Positions 715 to 55,438 of a stretch of DNA of 64,000 nt are shown one piece after another (position 1 is the first letter of the stretch; every line of letters starts with the position of its first letter). A model generated the notes under the pieces. That model saw only the letters and a list, made by a program, of their open reading frames with translations, made no database searches and had not been told where the DNA came from. The position numbers and the translations under genes are program-made. The stretch is from Alphaproteobacteria bacterium. Its GTDB lineage: Bacteria; Pseudomonadota; Alphaproteobacteria; JAJTHO01; CANGYM01. The stretch covers positions 19,260-83,259 of the forward strand of contig JBILRW010000001.1 of the NCBI GenBank assembly GCA_044372405.1, read 5' to 3'.

Positions 715-802
715 CGTCATTGCGAGCCTCCGTAGGAGGCGTGGCAATCCAGTCTTTCTGGTTCTGGCATTTCTGGATTGCTTCGCTGCGCTCGCAATGA
801 CG
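715..802. repeat. MITE-like palindromic repeat, copy 1
   Basis: 88-bp element with a 13-bp perfect terminal inverted repeat, cgtcattgcgagc ... gctcgcaatgacg, and an internal CCTCCGTAGGAGG hairpin. Near-identical copies sit at 28449-28532 (inverted) and 54984-55068. Confidence 0.8.
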
Positions 803-15594: not shown

Positions 15595-15687
15595 GGGGGG
15601 ATTGATACGACAGGCAGTCCCTGTGATACTCGGGGGAAGGGGGGGGTGAAAAAGGCCTCTTATGCAAACGATGTAGATTGATAAGGG

Positions 15688-15730
15688 CACTTTCAAAGCA
15701 CTTTCAAAGCATGTCACTTTCAAAGCATTG
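15688..15730. promoter_or_regulatory. Triple direct repeat ACTTTCAAAGCA upstream of higBA (candidate operator), with a TTGACA -35-like hexamer right after it
   Basis: gcACTTTCAAAGCACTTTCAAAGCAtgtcACTTTCAAAGCATTGACAttttt, 50-90 bp upstream of the higB ATG. Confidence 0.45.
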
Positions 15731-15780
15731 ACATTTTTATCAATTTATGGCATAAAGAGTGCTATTGACGGACAACCTTA

Positions 15781-16125
15781 ATGAAAACCATACGCCCTAT
15801 TTCTTGGGTATCGGCGGCTCGAAAATCTTTTTGTGATTTTCCTTTGGGGGCGCAAGAGATCATTCTCTCTTCTCTCACCATGGCTGCTGAGGGAGGCATG
15901 CCCCCTTTGGCCAAGCCTTTTAAAGGTATGGGTTCTGGGGTTTTTGAAATTGCTCTTCCTTATCAAGGGGATGCGTACCGATGTGTTTATGCGGTCAAGC
16001 TGGCGGATGCGGTTTGGGTGGTTCATGCCTTCCAAAAAAAGTCTAAAACAGGCATCAAAACGCCGCAACAAGAGGTTGATCTGATACGAAAACGACTGAA
16101 ATTGTTAAAAGAGGCACTATCATGA
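15781..16125 (+). CDS. higB: HigB-like toxin (Gp49/DUF891 family, RelE/ParE superfamily)
   Basis: 114 aa, with ...RCVYAV...VWVVHAFQKKSKTG.... Confidence 0.75.
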   Translation: MKTIRPISWVSAARKSFCDFPLGAQEIILSSLTMAAEGGMPPLAKPFKGMGSGVFEIALPYQGDAYRCVYAVKLADAVWVVHAFQKKSKTGIKTPQQEVDLIRKRLKLLKEALS

Positions 16126-16430
16126 CCCCAGAAGAACCTTTGGACCTCATCCACGGCAGCGGCAATGTGTTTCAGGATTTTGGCTATTCCGATGCGGATA
16201 TTCGCCAGGCCAAGGCCTTGCTGGCGGCAAAAATTCTGATCCGTATGGAACAGCAAGGGCTGTCTCTGCATCAGGCAGAATCCTTAACAGGGGTTCCCCG
16301 ACTGGAATTTTCCCGTATCGTCAAAGCCGATCTTTCCCGCTTGACCCTGGACCGATTGCTGTATATCTGCAACCGCTTGGGTACCCAGGTGGGATTTAGT
16401 TTGAGGGAAGAGGGTCACGCGGCCCACTGA
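16122..16430 (+). CDS. higA: HigA-like HTH (XRE-family) antitoxin
   Basis: 102 aa with an HTH (LSLHQAESLTGVPRLEFSRIV). It overlaps higB by 4 nt (ATGA). Confidence 0.75.
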   Translation: MTPEEPLDLIHGSGNVFQDFGYSDADIRQAKALLAAKILIRMEQQGLSLHQAESLTGVPRLEFSRIVKADLSRLTLDRLLYICNRLGTQVGFSLREEGHAAH

Positions 16431-16619
16431 TTTCAATCCGTATGATAAAAAGGGGGAGAAGGGGTAAAAATCCAAAAAAAATCAAATGGCCTTCCTACTA
16501 TGCTCCCCAAGGGGTAGTAAGAAGGCCGAAAAATGACGGTCTACAGCGATGCAGAATACGCTGGATAGTGTGGACCGAAACTACCGCAAACCTCCGAGAT
16601 CTCGGAGGTTAGGTATGAA

Positions 16620-16955
16620 ATGGAAAAGGCAATAATCTCTGCCTTCGAAGAGAAGTTCTTCGAAGAGAAGTTCTTCGAAGGGTGGGTAGTCAAAAACTCT
16701 ACAAATCCACGGACATCCTGGTCCGTGAAAGTGATTTGTGTGCTTCTGCCTCCTCCTATCCGTTTCCAAAGAACGCCTTGGGGGAGCTGTTCCCAATCCT
16801 CCAATCCCAAGGCGTCTTTAGTGCCGAAAAAAGATTTTCTCGTATTAACGAAAAATTTGATAATCATGATAGTAACCTCAAAAACGACAACGAACGTTAA
16901 CAAGGTGGTCAAGTGCAATAAAATCAAGGGGATAATATGCACTAGGCTAGTATGA
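16620..16955 (+). CDS. Orphan hypothetical ORF in an AT-rich islet. It contains the tandem repeat EEKFFEEKFF, and a 133-aa antisense ORF makes the coding strand uncertain
   Basis: A GGAGG lies about 14 nt upstream. There is no family resemblance. It overlaps an equally plausible minus-strand ORF at 16541-16942. Confidence 0.2.
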   Translation: MEKAIISAFEEKFFEEKFFEGWVVKNSTNPRTSWSVKVICVLLPPPIRFQRTPWGSCSQSSNPKASLVPKKDFLVLTKNLIIMIVTSKTTTNVNKVVKCNKIKGIICTRLV

Positions 16956-17046
16956 ATTTAGCCTAATATATATATATGTCAAGAATTTTATGCGTATTTT
17001 CGTGCCGTTTTTTATCTTTTGTTTAAGGGGAAAACTGCTATAGTTT

Positions 17047-19980
17047 TTGTCCCTTTCGTCAAAAAATAATGTGATTATGACGCAGCCTTCTTCCCTTGCC
17101 TTTTTGTCCAATGCCAATCCGGCGTTTTTGCAGTCGCTGTATGAAAATTATGCGAAAAATCCGGATTCTGTGGATGCGTCGTGGCGCGCGCTGTTTGATG
17201 ATTTGCGGGATGAAGTCGCCGCCAACAACAATCTCTCACCATCCTGGGGTAGCAAACTGACCCTGAAAGATGACGATCTGGACGTCCCCGGCCCCGTCAC
17301 TGCGAAAAAAGACAATAAAGACAAAGGCGCCCCCGCAGATAAAAATGCCCCCATCTTGCCCGCCGATGCCGTGGCGCGTGCGGACGCTGAGGCCATGGTG
17401 CACGATTCCATCCGCGCCCTGATGTTGATTCGGGCCTACCGGGCGTGCGGGCACTTTTTGGCCAAGCTGGATCCCCTGGGGCTGACCGAAACCGCCAACC
17501 ATCCTGAGCTGGACTATCGGACCTATGGCTTTTCTGAGGCCGACTTGGACCGCACTATCTATATAGACAATGTGCTGGGTCTGACCAAACCCACCCTGCG
17601 CCAGATTTTATCGGTGTTGCAGCAAAGTTACAGCGGCACCATTGGCTTTGAATTTATGCACGTTCAGGATCCAGCGGCGAAATCGTGGTTGCAGGAACGG
17701 ATTGAGGGCACGCGTCCCCAAAATCTGTTTTCGGCTGAGGAGAAAAAAGAGATTTTGCGCGACCTGACCCGCGCCGAAGGCTTTGAGAAATACCTGCACT
17801 TAAAATACACGGGCACGAAACGTTTCGGCCTGGACGGGGGCGAAAGTGTCATTGCGGCGCTGGAGGCGTGTCTTAAAGCCTCGGCCAAACTGGGCACAAA
17901 AGAGGTTGTGTTGGGTATGGCACACCGCGGCCGTCTGAACGTGCTGGCCAACATCATGGATAAACCCATGGTGAAGATTTTTTCGGAATTTCAGGGCAAT
18001 GCTGCCCATCCCGATGATGTTCAGGGTTCGGGGGATGTGAAATATCACCTGGGAACCTCCGTGGATCGCCAAATTGCGGGGCAGACGGTCCATTTATCCC
18101 TGACCGCCAACCCGTCCCACCTGGAGGCCGTGAATCCCGTGGTGGTCGGCAAAGTCCGGGCCAAGCAAGCCCTGCGTGGTGATAAAGAGCGCAAGCAAGT
18201 CCTGGCCATTTTGCTGCACGGCGATGCGGCGTTTGCGGGTCAGGGATTGGTGCCCGAAACCATTGGATTGTCCGAGCTCAAAGGCTATCGCACCGGCGGG
18301 ACCATGCATTTTATTGTGAACAATCAGATTGGGTTTACGACCTCGCCCAGCTATGCGCGCTCGACCCCCTATTCCACCGATGTGGCGCAAATGGTGAAAA
18401 GCCCCATTTTCCACGTCAACGGCGATGACCCAGAGGCCGTGGTGTGGGTGTCCCAGCTGGCCGAAGAATTCCGCCAGACTTTCGCCAAAGATGTCGTGGT
18501 GGATGTCCTGTGTTACCGGCGTTTTGGGCACAACGAAAGCGACGAGCCCGCCTTTACCCAGCCCAAAATGTACAACAAAATTGCCAAACAGCCCTCAACG
18601 CGCACCCTGTACGCGGAACAACTCATCGCGCAGGGCGTTTTGAATCAGGCCGAAGCTGATGGCATGACAGCCGCCTATAACGCCCAGATGGACGCGGCCT
18701 TTGATCAAAGCAAAACCTTTAAAACCAGCAAAGCCGATTGGCTGGAAGGCGCCTGGTCCGGCATGGATACCGCCAAAGACGAAGAAGACCGCAAGGGCAA
18801 CACCGATGTATCGTTGGATGTTTTAAAGCAGGTAGGCAAAGCCCTGGCTTCTGTCCCTGCCACCTTTGACCTAAACCCCAAAATCAAACGCCAGCTGCAG
18901 GCCAAAGCCGCCATGTTTGAGAGCGGCGAGGGCTTTGACTGGGCGACCGCCGAGGCTCTGGCGTTTGGCACGCTGTTGCTGGAGGGATACAACGTCCGTT
19001 TGTCCGGGCAAGATTGTGGGCGCGGCACGTTTTCCCAGCGTCATGCCGTGTTGCATGATCAAACCAATGAAGACCGCTATCTGCCCCTGAATGGTATCCG
19101 AGAGGGCCAGGTCCAGGCGGAAATTATTGACAGCCCGCTGGCGGAGGCCTCTGTTCTGGGCTTTGACTACGGCTACTCCCTGGCGGACCCCAAAACGCTG
19201 GTCCTTTGGGAGGCGCAATTTGGCGATTTCGTCAACGGTGCCCAGGTGATTATTGATCAGTTTATTTCGTCTGCCGAATCCAAATGGCTGCGGATGTGCG
19301 GCCTGGTCATGCTGCTGCCCCATGGGTTTGAGGGGCAAGGGCCCGAGCATTCTTCGGCCCGGCTGGAGCGTTTTCTTCAGGCCTGCGCCGAGGACAACAT
19401 GCAGGTGGCCAATTGCAGCACGCCTGCCAACTATTTCCATATCCTGCGCCGTCAGATGCGCCGGAATTTCCGGAAGCCGTTGATTATCATGACACCCAAG
19501 TCGCTGCTGCGGCATAAATTGTGTGTCTCCAGCTTGGCGGACATGGGGCCAAACACGTCCTTTCACCGCGTGTTGCCGGAAACAGATAAGGGGTTGGTCC
19601 CCGATGCGAAAATCCGCCGTGTGGTCCTGTGCAGTGGCAAGGTGTATTATGATTTGTATGAGGCCCGCGCCGCCCAAAAAATCAATGATGTGGCCATTGT
19701 GCGTGTGGAGCAGTTTTATCCCTTCCCCCACAACAGTCTGAAAACGACCCTAACCCGTTATCCAAACGCTGAGGTTATTTGGTGCCAGGAAGAGCCCGAA
19801 AACATGGGCGCCTGGACGTTCCTGGATCGCCGGATTGAGGGGGTTTTGACGGACCTCAATCACAAAACAAAACGCCCCCGCTATGTGGGTCGCCCGGCGG
19901 CGGCGTCCCCGGCGGTGGGCACCATTACCCAACACAATCAACAGCAACAGGCGCTGGTGGCGGAGGCTTTGGGGAAGTGA
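17047..19980 (+). CDS. sucA: 2-oxoglutarate dehydrogenase E1 component
   Basis: 977 aa with a typical SucA N-terminus (...FLQSLYENYAKNPDSVDASWRALF) and ThDP-binding regions. The start may be the internal ATG at 17077. Confidence 0.9.
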   Translation: MSLSSKNNVIMTQPSSLAFLSNANPAFLQSLYENYAKNPDSVDASWRALFDDLRDEVAANNNLSPSWGSKLTLKDDDLDVPGPVTAKKDNKDKGAPADKNAPILPADAVARADAEAMVHDSIRALMLIRAYRACGHFLAKLDPLGLTETANHPELDYRTYGFSEADLDRTIYIDNVLGLTKPTLRQILSVLQQSYSGTIGFEFMHVQDPAAKSWLQERIEGTRPQNLFSAEEKKEILRDLTRAEGFEKYLHLKYTGTKRFGLDGGESVIAALEACLKASAKLGTKEVVLGMAHRGRLNVLANIMDKPMVKIFSEFQGNAAHPDDVQGSGDVKYHLGTSVDRQIAGQTVHLSLTANPSHLEAVNPVVVGKVRAKQALRGDKERKQVLAILLHGDAAFAGQGLVPETIGLSELKGYRTGGTMHFIVNNQIGFTTSPSYARSTPYSTDVAQMVKSPIFHVNGDDPEAVVWVSQLAEEFRQTFAKDVVVDVLCYRRFGHNESDEPAFTQPKMYNKIAKQPSTRTLYAEQLIAQGVLNQAEADGMTAAYNAQMDAAFDQSKTFKTSKADWLEGAWSGMDTAKDEEDRKGNTDVSLDVLKQVGKALASVPATFDLNPKIKRQLQAKAAMFESGEGFDWATAEALAFGTLLLEGYNVRLSGQDCGRGTFSQRHAVLHDQTNEDRYLPLNGIREGQVQAEIIDSPLAEASVLGFDYGYSLADPKTLVLWEAQFGDFVNGAQVIIDQFISSAESKWLRMCGLVMLLPHGFEGQGPEHSSARLERFLQACAEDNMQVANCSTPANYFHILRRQMRRNFRKPLIIMTPKSLLRHKLCVSSLADMGPNTSFHRVLPETDKGLVPDAKIRRVVLCSGKVYYDLYEARAAQKINDVAIVRVEQFYPFPHNSLKTTLTRYPNAEVIWCQEEPENMGAWTFLDRRIEGVLTDLNHKTKRPRYVGRPAAASPAVGTITQHNQQQQALVAEALGK

Positions 19981-20621
19981 TAACTGTATTTTTATACATT
20001 GTTGTCATTTTTTTTGGAATATGGTCATTTTTGCTTTACAGAAAAGCACCTCTCACTAAAGAGCTGAGACGACGAAAAATCATCATCGCTCTGTTTTTGA
20101 TAGGTGTATTTTTGGTTTCTACGTTTATATACTTTGTAAGTATTGACCCTGTTCCTAAGAGAACCGAAGAGCAGGAAAAAAAACTTCAGGAAGAATGGAA
20201 GCAATATCTTCAAAAAGTTGAAACAATACGCCGTCAAAAAGAGGCCGCCGTTGAAAAAGACGGTATCGAAAAGAACTTTCTTGCTGCCGTAGACCTCAAA
20301 GAAAAACCTTGGATCAGTGTTTTTGTTTGGGAAGATGTGGCTGTTTTATATCCCAAAACTGTTTTTGATAAGAACTGTGTGTTTCAAGTTTTTTATAACA
20401 AAAATGAATTTGTATGGGACTCCAGCGGTGTTTACACGTCAAACGAACATCCTGAGAAAAAGATAGAATGGGGAAAATTTGTTGAAATCGAAACCTATCC
20501 CTCTAAAGCCTTCGATCTTCTTAAAAAGGACATCCATCATCTAAATCTACGTGTAAAAGGCTTGCCCCTCTGTGTTGAGGAAATAGATTACATTAAAATA
20601 GAAACTCGTTCATCAAAATGA
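19977..20621 (+). CDS. Hypothetical membrane protein (two N-terminal TM helices). It has a GTG start overlapping the sucA stop and no internal Met
   Basis: A 214-codon open frame in AT-rich DNA. GTGA overlaps sucA and ATGA overlaps the next gene. Confidence 0.45.
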   Translation: MITVFLYIVVIFFGIWSFLLYRKAPLTKELRRRKIIIALFLIGVFLVSTFIYFVSIDPVPKRTEEQEKKLQEEWKQYLQKVETIRRQKEAAVEKDGIEKNFLAAVDLKEKPWISVFVWEDVAVLYPKTVFDKNCVFQVFYNKNEFVWDSSGVYTSNEHPEKKIEWGKFVEIETYPSKAFDLLKKDIHHLNLRVKGLPLCVEEIDYIKIETRSSK

Positions 20622-21028
20622 AAGCCCATCTTCCCCTTCGTTGGCAGCAGCAGTTATCGTCCTTTGAGCAGGCTTACCAAGCCTTTTTGCGTCGCTTTCA
20701 GGGTTATGGGGAAATGCCAAACGATGAGGCGCAACAAATGGCCCTGGTTCAGGCCTTTGAGGTTGTGTTTGAAACCGCGTGGAAAACCCTGAAATCCCGA
20801 TTGGAACATGAGGGCTTCACCGATGTGGCCACCCCGCGCCGGGCCCTGCGCCAGGCGTTTCAACTGGGGTGGATCACGGGAGGAGCAATCTGGCTGCGCG
20901 CCCTGGAATACCGGAATCTTTCGGTTCATACCTATCATCAGGATGTTCTGGATCAACTGACCGCCTTCATCAGCCAGGAATTTTCCCCTGTTTTGCAGGG
21001 TTTTCATGACCATTTTCCGCGCTCATGA
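20618..21028 (+). CDS. HEPN-domain protein, HI0074 family (nucleotidyltransferase substrate-binding protein)
   Basis: ...FEVVFETAWKTLKSRLEHEGFTDVATPRRALRQAFQLGWITGGAIWLRALEYRNLSVHTYHQD... closely parallels the HI0074 family, including the R-x4-H HEPN motif (RNLSVH). Confidence 0.75.
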   Translation: MKAHLPLRWQQQLSSFEQAYQAFLRRFQGYGEMPNDEAQQMALVQAFEVVFETAWKTLKSRLEHEGFTDVATPRRALRQAFQLGWITGGAIWLRALEYRNLSVHTYHQDVLDQLTAFISQEFSPVLQGFHDHFPRS

Positions 21029-21276
21029 TAAATCAGCCTTACCCTTATGGCCTGTCCTCCGATGCACGAAAACAATGGTTTGCCCTGCTTGAGCAGGTTC
21101 AGGACGAGCCTTGCTTGATTAAGGGTAAAAGCCCTCACCACGCCGTCCTGGTTTCCCAAGACGATTGGGAATCCATCCAAGAAACCCTTTACCTGCTCTC
21201 CATTCCCGGTATGAGGGATTCTTTGATTCAGGGCCGGGAGATACCGCTTTCTTTGTGTGTAGAGCTGAAACCATGA
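21025..21276 (+). CDS. Phd/YefM-family antitoxin
   Basis: 83 aa with ...HAVLVSQDDWESIQETLYLLSIPGMRDSLIQGRE.... It overlaps the HEPN gene by ATGA. Confidence 0.7.
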   Translation: MINQPYPYGLSSDARKQWFALLEQVQDEPCLIKGKSPHHAVLVSQDDWESIQETLYLLSIPGMRDSLIQGREIPLSLCVELKP

Positions 21277-21338
21277 CGTGGCGGATTGTTTTGACCAAAG
21301 ATGCCGAAAAAATCCAAAAGTCCCGTGTTTATTTATGA
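21273..21338 (+). pseudogene. Truncated RelE/ParE-like toxin remnant (21 codons)
   Basis: MTWRIVLTKDAEKIQKSRVYL* resembles the RelE/ParE N-terminus (M.W.I.FT..A.KDL.KL). Its ATGA overlaps the Phd stop. The rest is lost or frameshifted. Confidence 0.5.
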
Positions 21339-21368
21339 TTATTTTTCCATCCAACTTATGGCGAAACT

Positions 21369-21779
21369 CTATTCGTGTTCTTGTTCCCGTGAGGTGGCGT
21401 AAATCCCTACACATATTTCAATGCCGAACTGTCCCGCACGTTCAACAAGCTTTGAAGGCAAGCACAGAAAAAACGCGACCGTATCCTCGTACCACCAGCC
21501 ACCGAACCGCAACTCTATTTCTTGAACACCGGGAAAACACCGTAATCGACGAAGTTCCTCCTCTTGTTCTTCCAAAAAAATGATTGCCCTTTCGATTTGA
21601 ACTGTAATCGTGTCTTCATCGTCGGATATATCCAAGTGCAAACCCTGGATTGGCTTTTCTTGTCCAGGACAGTTTTTGTTGTAAAAAGTCGATGCATATT
21701 TACGCCATACAAAAGATGTTTTCAAAAAAGATTCAACGTCAAAACTTTCTCCGGAAACAGATAAAAAACAACCAGCCAT
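21369..21779 (-). CDS. DUF4279-like hypothetical protein
   Basis: AT-rich, and convergent on the toxin-antitoxin remnant. The pattern FLSVSGESFDVESFLKTS...IELRFGGWWYEDTVAFFLCL...ICVGIY resembles DUF4279. Confidence 0.45.
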   Translation of the reverse strand: MAGCFLSVSGESFDVESFLKTSFVWRKYASTFYNKNCPGQEKPIQGLHLDISDDEDTITVQIERAIIFLEEQEEELRRLRCFPGVQEIELRFGGWWYEDTVAFFLCLPSKLVERAGQFGIEICVGIYATSREQEHE

Positions 21780-21863
21780 AATTTTAATTCCATAGTTTTT
21801 TATTATATGACTTACGCAAATGAACCACAAGTTATTAAAAAAATGGATAAACCATTTATGCCC

Positions 21864-27529: not shown

Positions 27530-28225
27530 ATGCCTTTGAATCGAACTCTGGATGCTATTGATATTTTTGCTGCCTTAACTCCCGAAGATCGGGGCCGTAT
27601 TGCTGCGTTATGCCAATGGCGGACTTTTGAAGAAGATCACTATATTTTGGATAAAAACGATCAGGAAACGGATATTTATTTTATTACCGAGGGCAGTATT
27701 CGGATTTTGAATTATTCATTGGCGGGTCGCGAGGTCAGCTATGCCGATGTTGGTGTGGGTGCTTGTTTTGGGGAGCTTTCAGCCCTGGATGGACAGCCAC
27801 GTTCAGCGGCCGTGATTGCCAAAACAACAACCCAGGTGGCGGTATTATCGGCAGCCCAGTTTCATGGTATTTTAGAGGCCTATCCTAGCATTACTCTGGC
27901 TCTCCTTAAAAAATTGGCGTCTTTTTTGCGGTTTGCGTCGCTCAGGATTTTTGAAATGAGTACCCAGCAATCCCAACACCGGGTGGCTTTGGAATTGCTC
28001 CGTTTGATGGAAATGGTGGGCCACAAAGGGGAACAGGATGGGCTGATGGTGCTGTCCCCCGCCCCCAAACAAATGGATTTGGCCAACCGCATCGGGGCCA
28101 CACGGGAAACGGTGGCCCGGGCGTTTCGGAAATTCACCGAAGAGGGCATTGTGGCCCGTGTACCTCGGGGGTTAAGGATTACGAATGAACCCGCGTTACG
28201 GGCCCTGGCGGAAAGCGTTGAATAA
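27530..28225 (+). CDS. Crp/Fnr-family transcriptional regulator
   Basis: cNMP-binding domain (FGELSALDGQPRSA) plus a C-terminal HTH (RIGATRETVARAFRKF). Confidence 0.85.
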   Translation: MPLNRTLDAIDIFAALTPEDRGRIAALCQWRTFEEDHYILDKNDQETDIYFITEGSIRILNYSLAGREVSYADVGVGACFGELSALDGQPRSAAVIAKTTTQVAVLSAAQFHGILEAYPSITLALLKKLASFLRFASLRIFEMSTQQSQHRVALELLRLMEMVGHKGEQDGLMVLSPAPKQMDLANRIGATRETVARAFRKFTEEGIVARVPRGLRITNEPALRALAESVE

Positions 28226-28448
28226 CGGGTTCAAAGGGTATACACTTAAGAAGGCTGGCGTGTTCGAGGCCCATCACGTTCCTCGGTCCATATGTATAAG
28301 AATGGGAGCTGTCCCTGTCTTAACCGTGGTTAAGGTATTACGGCGCCCCCCTGGTCATCGGCACCAGGCAACACGATGGCCACGGCACGCTGGCTCTAAA
28401 GCGTTTAAATGTATTGTTTTTTTTATGGAAATCTTATTCTGTAACCCT

Positions 28449-28532
28449 CGTGCGAGCGCAGCGAAGCAATCTAGAAATACCGTCACTGCAAAGACTGGAT
28501 TGCCACGCCTCCTACGGAGGCTCGCAATGACG
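28449..28532. repeat. MITE-like palindromic repeat, copy 2 (inverted relative to copy 1)
   Basis: Its reverse complement aligns almost base-for-base with 715-802. Confidence 0.8.
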
Positions 28533-28808
28533 TTGTCCGTAAGTTTTAAAACAAACTATCAATTTCCTGGCCGCGACCGTTGTCTTGGTCGCTGACCTGA
28601 AATTCGTCGGTGCGCCAGTGGGGGCTGTCTTTGCGCGTTTTGCGCTGGACGGCCTCCCGATGGGTCCCTTTGTCATTTTTTGTGGGGTTGGCCCCCTTTA
28701 GGTTAGAAACCGGCACCACCAACGCAGACGCGAGGGAGGGGATGATGAGCATAATGTCCTATTGTGGCGCGAAAGGGTTAACGGGTGGTAAAAGAAGACC
28801 TTCGGGAT

Positions 28809-54876: not shown

Positions 54877-54983
54877 CCCAAGATTATCAGCCTGGGAAAG
54901 TTTCCCGAAAAACAAAAACATAAGATAACGCATCGGGTTGTTCAATACAAAAAATAAAAAATCCTTTAAAGGCAAAAAGTTAA

Positions 54984-55068
54984 CAACTGCGAGCCTCCGT
55001 AGGCGGCGTAGCAATCCAGTTTTCCCCCTGGCAGCCTTTCTGGATTGTGTCGCTGCGCTCGCATGACG
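54984..55068. repeat. MITE-like palindromic repeat, copy 3
   Basis: ...ctgcgagcctccgtaggcggcgtagcaatccag...gctgcgctcgcatgacg, about 85% identical to copy 1. Confidence 0.75.
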
Positions 55069-55219
55069 AAGGTTCTGGGTAAGTCTTGTTTTGTTGTAAT
55101 GCCTCCACCCTCGGGGACAAGGGCTGGGGAGAGGGGTCTGGCCCGTACCCATATTCTGAAAGATCGAAAAAAATCCCGCCGTACCTTTTGGGCGGGCGGG
55201 ATTTTAAGAGAAAGTGAGC

Positions 55220-55438
55220 CTAACACTCTCTTTCTCTTGATGAGGCTCTTTCTATCTCAATCAAAAAGGCCTCGACGTCGTCCAGGAGACTTTCGTTCCC
55301 GCGGCCACGTTGTTCGCCTCCTTGGTCTAAATCCGAAAATTTAATGGAAAATTCTCGAATTTTTCTTGCCGGAAGACTGGCAAGCTTGGCCTTGCAGACT
55401 CCGAGCATGATTTCCCTTACTTCATAATAATCAATCAT
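55220..55438 (-). CDS. Hypothetical small protein (72 aa)
   Basis: Open frame only; there is no family resemblance. Confidence 0.2.
   Translation of the reverse strand: MIDYYEVREIMLGVCKAKLASLPARKIREFSIKFSDLDQGGEQRGRGNESLLDDVEAFLIEIERASSREREC

Follow-up and report, generated by a model that had tools for sequence, protein, structure and literature searches.

The three palindromic repeats in the 64-kb stretch of DNA analysed here (the window) are a rare heterodimer variant, found in a poorly known alphaproteobacterial lineage, and do not amount to an element of a new kind. Most features of the head-to-head (HH) dimers formed by CGTC-tagged REPs are present in them, and they are probably REPIN-like, non-autonomous palindromes of this sort. 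An earlier note on this DNA had described three dispersed, palindromic, non-coding repeats, which is borne out, as they are discrete elements of about 88 bp with 81–90% identity to one another. The same note took them for a novel family, a view overtaken by the occurrence of the same form in at least 120 genome stretches as well as by the match to CGTC REP dimers. The lineage-restricted part is a sequence variant only, namely a unit with the apex CCTCC-GTA-GGAGG together with a shared 20-nt spacer.

Three discrete elements and their gene surroundings

Copy 1 (715–802, forward strand) is a complete HH heterodimer of 88 bp, running CGTCATTGCGAGC-CTCCGTAGGAGG-CGTGGCAATCCAG, a 20-nt spacer and then CTGGATTGCTTCGCTGCGCTCGCAATGACG. 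Its left unit (715–752) carries the apex hairpin CCTCC-GTA-GGAGG, the spacer occupies 753–772, and the right unit (773–802) reads, on the reverse strand, CGTCATTGCGAGCGCAGCGAAGCAATCCAG, the widespread unit. As this right-hand unit is exactly the common one, the window elements are heterodimers of a rare and a common unit. The internal CCTCCGTAGGAGG hairpin reported previously is the apex of one unit, with the loop GTA, a form of GNA. Copy 2, on the reverse strand, has one intact terminus and is better placed at 28445–28532 than at the 28449–28532 first proposed, the coordinates of the other two copies being left as they were; its intact unit lies at 28495–28532, its spacer at 28475–28494 and its degenerate second unit, with the terminus CCCTCGTGCGAGC, at 28445–28474, and its inner stem carries CTAGATTGC. 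Copy 3 (54984–55068, forward strand) is a decayed heterodimer in which the left unit (54984–55019) is truncated at its 5′ end (CAACTGCGAGC), the spacer spans 55020–55039, the right unit (55040–55068) has lost 1 nt from its terminus, and the small hairpin contains one mismatch (CCTCCGTAGGCGG). The 13-bp terminal inverted repeats said to be shared by all three are therefore perfect in copy 1 (CGTCATTGCGAGC / GCTCGCAATGACG) but degenerate or truncated in copies 2 and 3.

A repeat finder aligned the copies pairwise over 82 nt at 90% and over 79 nt at 81–82% identity, and since this similarity stops at the element borders, each copy stands alone and does not belong to a longer duplicated segment. 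When the 64 kb were searched with a profile of 199 arms from other genomes, the three dimers accounted for all six arms recovered (E values of 2e-9 to 0.016), with nothing else below E = 1, and no other CGTC-type REP was found within the window. The outcome that the earlier note had named as fatal to its proposal, three copies only and these belonging to a longer duplication, is thus not what is observed. The folding that it suggested gives, for copy 1, −46 kcal/mol as RNA (z −7.3 against shuffled sequence) and −27.5 kcal/mol as DNA (z −8.0), the predicted fold being a long bulged hairpin.

The window is otherwise ordinary chromosome, with genes for PGK, SucA/SucB, cytochrome oxidase, IleRS, Der, IspH and similar proteins, and no transposase was seen among the window ORFs scanned. 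Its source is an uncultured alphaproteobacterium, which we count in favour of the CGTC REP reading; the best named relatives of its MoxR protein, from Dongiaceae, Rhodospirillales and Parvibaculum, are less than 60% identical. All three copies are intergenic and near gene ends, as had been claimed. Copy 1 lies between the convergent genes for an 86-aa ORF (427–687, forward), whose stop is 27 nt away, and MoxR (816–1787, reverse), whose stop is 13 nt away. Copy 2, also in convergent context, is flanked on one side, at 13 nt, by the stop codon of a 68-aa ORF (28546–28752, reverse) downstream of der, and on the other it comes 44 nt after the end of a 6S RNA gene. Copy 3 precedes by 50 nt the SNF2 start (54933) that a public assembly (L206) calls, and is downstream of a called 72-aa ORF (55220–55438, reverse), whose stop is 151 nt away (152 bp in coordinates).

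Gene calling is visibly affected by these insertions. The longest ORF at SNF2 has a false 5′ extension of 73 codons (54934–55152, reverse) that crosses copy 3, just as the earlier note had suspected, and a 136-aa ORF (28185–28595, forward), annotated as a gene in a JGI record, is an artefact crossing both the 6S RNA gene and copy 2. Translations of this kind betray the elements by the strings LDCFAALA, LLRRLAMT and RHCE. The 86-aa ORF beside copy 1, on the other hand, is real, since a relative has a counterpart of it with 41% identity (L197, 1076–1354, reverse); the MoxR proteins of the same two strains are 98% identical, and the divergence of the small ORF points to a small protein that evolves fast or else to replacement of a segment beside copy 1. 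Short-read contigs of the same organism stop inside or at copies 1 and 2.

Anatomy of the unit and the dimer

Each unit consists of a tag, 5′-Y-CGTC, followed by ATTGC, GAG, a small apex hairpin, CG(N)R, GCAAT and the tail CCAG, and the element is made of two such units in inverted orientation, tags outward, around a spacer of about 20 nt. Among 541 arms from 190 loci, CGTCATTGC...GCAATCC is common to all. The commonest, 12-nt apex is GAG-C-GNA-G-CGAA, in which N is A in 86 cases, C in 67, G in 25 and T in 24, and GNA is kept in 202 of 218. As DNA, the sequence GC-GNA-GC forms the classic mini-hairpin of very high stability. Longer apexes contain covarying stems, of which 33 are distinct (for instance CCTCC/GGAGG, as in the window, CCGC/GCGG, AGCCC/GGGCT and GGCGC/GCGCC), and in 37% of them the stem has four or more perfect pairs, compared to 9.6% of shuffles.

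The sizes defined by 233 end pairs cluster at 70–100 bp; about 226 dimers were recognised among the 541 arms, with spacers mostly of 14–22 nt. The 210 non-redundant elements have the ends Y-CGTC...GACG-R, and C precedes GTCATT in 186 of them. An additional outer base pair between Y and R was considered and rejected, as the bases flanking the tags form 85 Watson-Crick pairs where 79 are expected; because they do not covary, Y and R are better regarded as preferences of each unit.

Distribution

The general pattern, defined as TTGCGAGC..GCAATCCAG..CTGGATTGC at suitable spacing, was found, besides the genome stretches mentioned above, in 63 IMG/VR contigs and on 12 plasmids, with at least 40 places on one Novosphingobium replicon. 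Among the matches listed, the hosts are mostly Alphaproteobacteria, including Bradyrhizobium, Sphingomonadales, Bosea, Methylocystis/Methylosinus, Methylobacterium, and Rhodospirillales and Rickettsiales MAGs, with some Gammaproteobacteria; hosts outside the Alphaproteobacteria comprise Legionella, Coxiellaceae, Berkiellales, Solimonas, Lysobacterales, a cyanobacterial plasmid and a few odd MAGs. Their G+C content ranges from 33% to 72%. The form with shared termini and inner stem, CGTCATTGCGAG...GCAATCCAG...CTGGATTGC...CTCGCAATGACG, is abundant in Bradyrhizobium, Sphingomonadales, Methylocystis, Legionella, Coxiellaceae and others, and the consensus of the widespread form can be written cgtcaTTGCGAGCGAAGCGAAGCAATCCAG-(spacer)-CTGGATTGCttcg..ctcgcaatgacg.

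The arm of the window subfamily, GCGAGCCTCCGTAGGNGGCGNNGCAATCC, with its apex CCTCC-GTA-GGAGG, is by comparison rare and was found in 7 metagenome stretches. Two of the sequences recovered (L189 and L191) are full relatives of the window elements and have in common with them the spacer type TCTTTC...GGCATTT. A 35–40-nt arm of the subfamily, CGTCATTGCGAGCCTCCGTAGGAGGCGTGGCAATCC, is 100% identical in L188, L190 and L194 (39–43% G+C) and in L192 and L193 (58–63% G+C), joined in these five to unrelated or much longer spacers. From the sequences as they stand, this identity across base compositions may hint at horizontal spread or at a very strong sequence constraint.

Tandem arrays also occur, with a period of about 155 nt in an alphaproteobacterial MAG from roe-deer gut (L068, 1–360) and of about 105 nt in a Spirochaetaceae MAG (L150, 1–420); in both, dimers are mixed with extra single ends in a manner that resembles BIME-like clusters. 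Most of the IMG/VR contigs (L001–L063) are GTA-like or prophage head–tail clusters, with genes for terminase, portal, capsid, DUF2460 and BR0599 proteins, and the repeat sits between these genes. Being structural clusters of this kind, the IMG/VR matches do not count as evidence of a phage origin.

Neither at gathering nor at permissive thresholds did the window copy or eight general-form loci match an Rfam family. Literature searches with the sequence strings returned unrelated primer matches or nothing, and no paper printing the sequence was found.

Fit to the CGTC-tagged REPs

CGTC-tagged REPs were described by Di Nocera, De Gregorio & Rocco (2013, BMC Genomics 14:522; PMC3733652) and include the Rickettsia RPE-4/-6 and Neisseria units. 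As described there, each unit has at one end an unpaired CGTC tag, sometimes TGTC or CCTC, then a stem of 8–9 bp starting with AT, a loop of 4–5 nt and a CCA tail. HH dimers with the tags outside and spacers of 20–100 bp predominate, both as homodimers and as heterodimers, mainly in Alphaproteobacteria, near the 3′ ends of convergent or unidirectional ORFs and with no associated transposase (PMC3733652).

Our elements agree with this description in most respects. The tag is present at both ends of copy 1, at one end of copy 2 and, with a deletion, at one end of copy 3; the stem starts with AT in every unit (ATTGC...GCAAT), and the CCA tail is found in all intact units as GCAAT-CCA-G. The three window copies are HH dimers, about 226 dimers were found among the 541 arms, heterodimers and homodimers both occur, the sites lie between convergent or unidirectional ORFs near their 3′ ends, and the hosts are again mostly Alphaproteobacteria with no linked transposase. 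The unit is abundant in Bradyrhizobium and Novosphingobium, two genera that PMC3733652 lists as CGTC hosts. Our elements differ in the structure of the stem, which here has five perfect base pairs, an internal loop (GAG / CGNR) and an apex hairpin of 2–6 bp closed by a 3-nt GNA loop. PMC3733652 allows that bulged or unusual units possibly escaped the published search, and reports that loops of Bradyrhizobium CGTC-1 vary in length.

This raises the question of whether the form YCGTC-ATTGC-GAG-[GC-GNA-GC]-CGAA-GCAAT-CCAG, here called the ATTGCGAG type, belongs to one of the named families CGTC-1 to -4, a comparison that was made through the peptides and plasmids listed in that paper rather than through consensus sequences. 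The intragenic peptides listed there (VIPAKAGI, DSRLRGND, VIPGLDPGIH and VIPWLDHGI) are not translations of our unit, and those of CGTC-1, -3 and -4 correspond instead to ATTCCCGC-, ATCCCGG- and ATTCCAG-type units. The plasmids of A. lipoferum are said in the same text to carry CGTC-1 and contain no match to the element, which speaks against identity with this CGTC-1. Hosts as different as Bradyrhizobium and Legionella have the ATTGCGAG type in almost unchanged form, and it is also carried by a cyanobacterial plasmid. We tentatively suggest that it might be an uncatalogued fifth CGTC REP family, possibly the most widespread one, and that its GNA hairpin and YCGTC tag could be the recognition signal of an unlinked enzyme acting on single-stranded DNA, a proposal that we hold to be possible rather than likely.

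Recent gain of copies 1 and 2

Comparison with relatives indicates that two of the elements were gained recently in this lineage. The site of copy 1 is empty downstream of moxR in three relatives, whose MoxR proteins are 98%, 87% and 70% identical, and in the closest of these the two convergent genes overlap. Copy 2 is missing, by alignment, from five syntenic relatives (L200–L204) in which Der is 84% identical. As the same sites are empty in close relatives, copies 1 and 2 are best explained as recent gains, and no arms at all were found in about 87 kb of the relatives’ contigs. For copy 3, the sole relative found has a different upstream neighbour.

The segment absent from the five relatives is a 146-nt insertion (28398–28543, reverse strand), in which the 88-bp element stands between 11 nt (CTTACGGACAA) and an A+T-rich stretch of 47 nt. 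The empty site in the relatives reads GGCTCT-TTTTT-AAAACAAAC without interruption, the junctions are clean, and TTTAAA lies near both of them. Since the gain comprises 146 nt, more than the 88-bp core, what moves in this lineage may be a longer composite. A degenerate outer inverted repeat, ACTTACGCA...TGCGTAAGT, is present in the copy 2 insertion, with its counterpart ttgtCCGTAAG at 28533–28543, and similar sequence stands on both sides of the 88-bp core in L191 and L189. Copy 3 retains a remnant on one side only (aaggttcTGGGTAAGT, 55069–55084, forward), and none was found at copy 1. The outer repeat lies 3 nt from one end of the core and 7 nt from the other, which points to a longer composite element or, alternatively, to an element inserted into a different small palindrome.

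The 6S RNA (SsrS) gene next to copy 2 (28249–28400, forward) matches RF00013 with 50.3 bits, above the gathering score of 46.4 (E 1.8e-9), although a gathering-mode Rfam scan of the whole window had missed it. Relatives whose proteins are only about 84% identical have the gene with almost 100% identity, and one of its hairpins shows two compensatory pairs. Directly 3′ of the gene the relatives have a T-run, which in the window is displaced by the 146-nt insertion. Other differences from the relatives were seen on gene order only: between heparinase-like and cation-efflux genes the window (about 15600–21850) has about 6 kb of extra genes compared to syntenic relatives (L200), among them that for the 2-oxoglutarate dehydrogenase E1 component, and the ribulose-phosphate epimerase gene beside rsmB in relatives is seemingly missing from the window.

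Known systems and the likely mode of spread

The closest analogues outside the CGTC group are the REPINs (Bertels & Rainey 2011, PMC3116915; Nunvar et al. 2010, PMC2817692). Like these, our elements consist of two inverted REP units around a short spacer that form one long hairpin, and they are non-autonomous, extragenic, free of target duplications and present in tens to hundreds of copies. REPINs differ in having a GTAG tag, where ours is CGTC, and in their link to a RAYT gene, which is present as a single copy with the same REPs on its flanks. A tblastn search with six RAYT/TIRYT proteins, taken from the supplement of PMC3733652, gave no Y1 (RAYT) homologue either in the window or across about 1.4 Mb around the elements, and the plasmids that carry the element likewise showed no match to a RAYT/Y1 gene. 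Among neighbouring ORF clusters of the sampled loci there was no transposase, the neighbours being only housekeeping or GTA/prophage structural genes. In the literature searched, later papers name no enzyme for the CGTC REPs, and the RepRanger 2025 paper and an HUH phylogenomics paper contribute nothing on CGTC units.

On the reading that we prefer, the element is a head-to-head pair of REP-like units, tags outward, analogous to a REPIN, and as single-stranded DNA or RNA the pair folds into one long bulged hairpin or, alternatively, each unit folds alone. It would be a selfish, non-autonomous element that spreads by way of single-stranded DNA, with an enzyme acting in trans that recognises the hairpin and the YCGTC tag and is presumably not encoded beside the copies. 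Copies would then persist where they are harmless, at 3′ ends. A transcribed hairpin may block 3′ exonucleases or help to end transcripts, although our confidence in any specific function for the element is low.

Position relative to genes counts in favour of an alternative, that of a host-selected, non-mobile cis-acting RNA, a 3′-end hairpin that terminates transcription or stabilises the upstream mRNA. Crude ORF calls on 120 genome loci allowed 101 elements to be placed, 37 of them between convergent, 56 between tandem and 8 between divergent genes, compared to a baseline of 154, 445 and 139 (chi-square p = 3e-4). The convergent share is therefore 37% versus 21%, with odds ratios of 2.2 for convergent and 0.37 for divergent sites, and the median distance from the upstream stop to the element is 16–25 nt. 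The hairpins are very stable, and there is a slight excess on the sense strand, seen in G-U pairs (76 versus 57 on the other strand) and in stability (35 versus 20 elements). The stability trend is not significant, however (p = 0.13), and heterodimers show no orientation bias relative to transcription (24 versus 16, p = 0.27). Flank composition in 210 elements revealed no T-run after the hairpin and there was no terminator call at copy 1; without a U-tract, the hairpin is not a canonical intrinsic terminator. Selection for such a role also sits poorly with sites that are empty in close relatives, with copy 3 lying upstream of a gene start, and with the lack of any matching Rfam family, and we regard it as unlikely.

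The description of the repeats as MITE-like implies a different history, in which they are deletion derivatives of an insertion sequence whose DDE transposase recognises the 13-bp terminal inverted repeats. Bacterial MITEs such as Correia, ERIC and Coxiella QMITE1/2 (PMC5896051) are likewise small and intergenic with terminal inverted repeats, and have effects on neighbouring ORF calls and possibly on transcripts. The perfect termini of copy 1, the small size and dispersed multicopy occurrence of the elements and their presence or absence between relatives would all fit this origin, and the TTTAAA near both copy 2 junctions might be taken for a 6-bp duplication, provided that further lineage-specific changes are allowed for. 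Bacterial MITEs, however, have target-site duplications and usually a parent IS, neither of which was seen: no duplication was detected in 210 non-redundant elements, of which 191–202 lacked a direct repeat of at least 2 nt at offsets 0–2, and in 190 loci no pair of ends 0.2–3 kb apart enclosed cargo as a longer element with the same ends would. Transposases are not enriched nearby, and spacers that vary freely between arms that are near-invariant across bacterial classes are unlike descent from one IS. Identity with QMITE1/2 in particular was rejected because these are GTAG-based or 300–400 bp long, QMITE2 being built on a GTAG REP. The hallmark of a classical MITE is thus absent from our elements, and such an origin is improbable.

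Very improbable, finally, is a DNA site for a protein, either for docking or integration of IS110-family elements or filamentous phage (as reported for the dRS3 repeats of Neisseria, which are the related CGTC-1 units of that genus) or for a nucleoid protein or gyrase (as in the BIMEs of E. coli). The extreme conservation of about 30 nt in hosts of 33% to 72% G+C would fit a site read by a conserved protein. In the loci examined, however, the elements are neither interrupted nor abutted by an insertion sequence or prophage, and such a site would explain how copies are used, not how they multiply.

Significance

Considered as CGTC REP dimers, the window copies belong to one sharply defined palindrome that is common to many Alpha- and Gammaproteobacteria and absent from Rfam. 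For annotation this has practical consequences, as the elements give rise to false ORFs (the extended 5′ end of SNF2 and the 136-aa ‘gene’) and break short-read assemblies. Since they mark recent, lineage-specific insertions, they are usable as strain markers. The combination of the YCGTC tag and the GNA-triloop hairpin is also a precise handle for seeking the enzyme that mobilises CGTC REPs and, if the reading of the ATTGCGAG type as a fifth family is true, that mobiliser would become testable by phylogenetic profiling on the motif.
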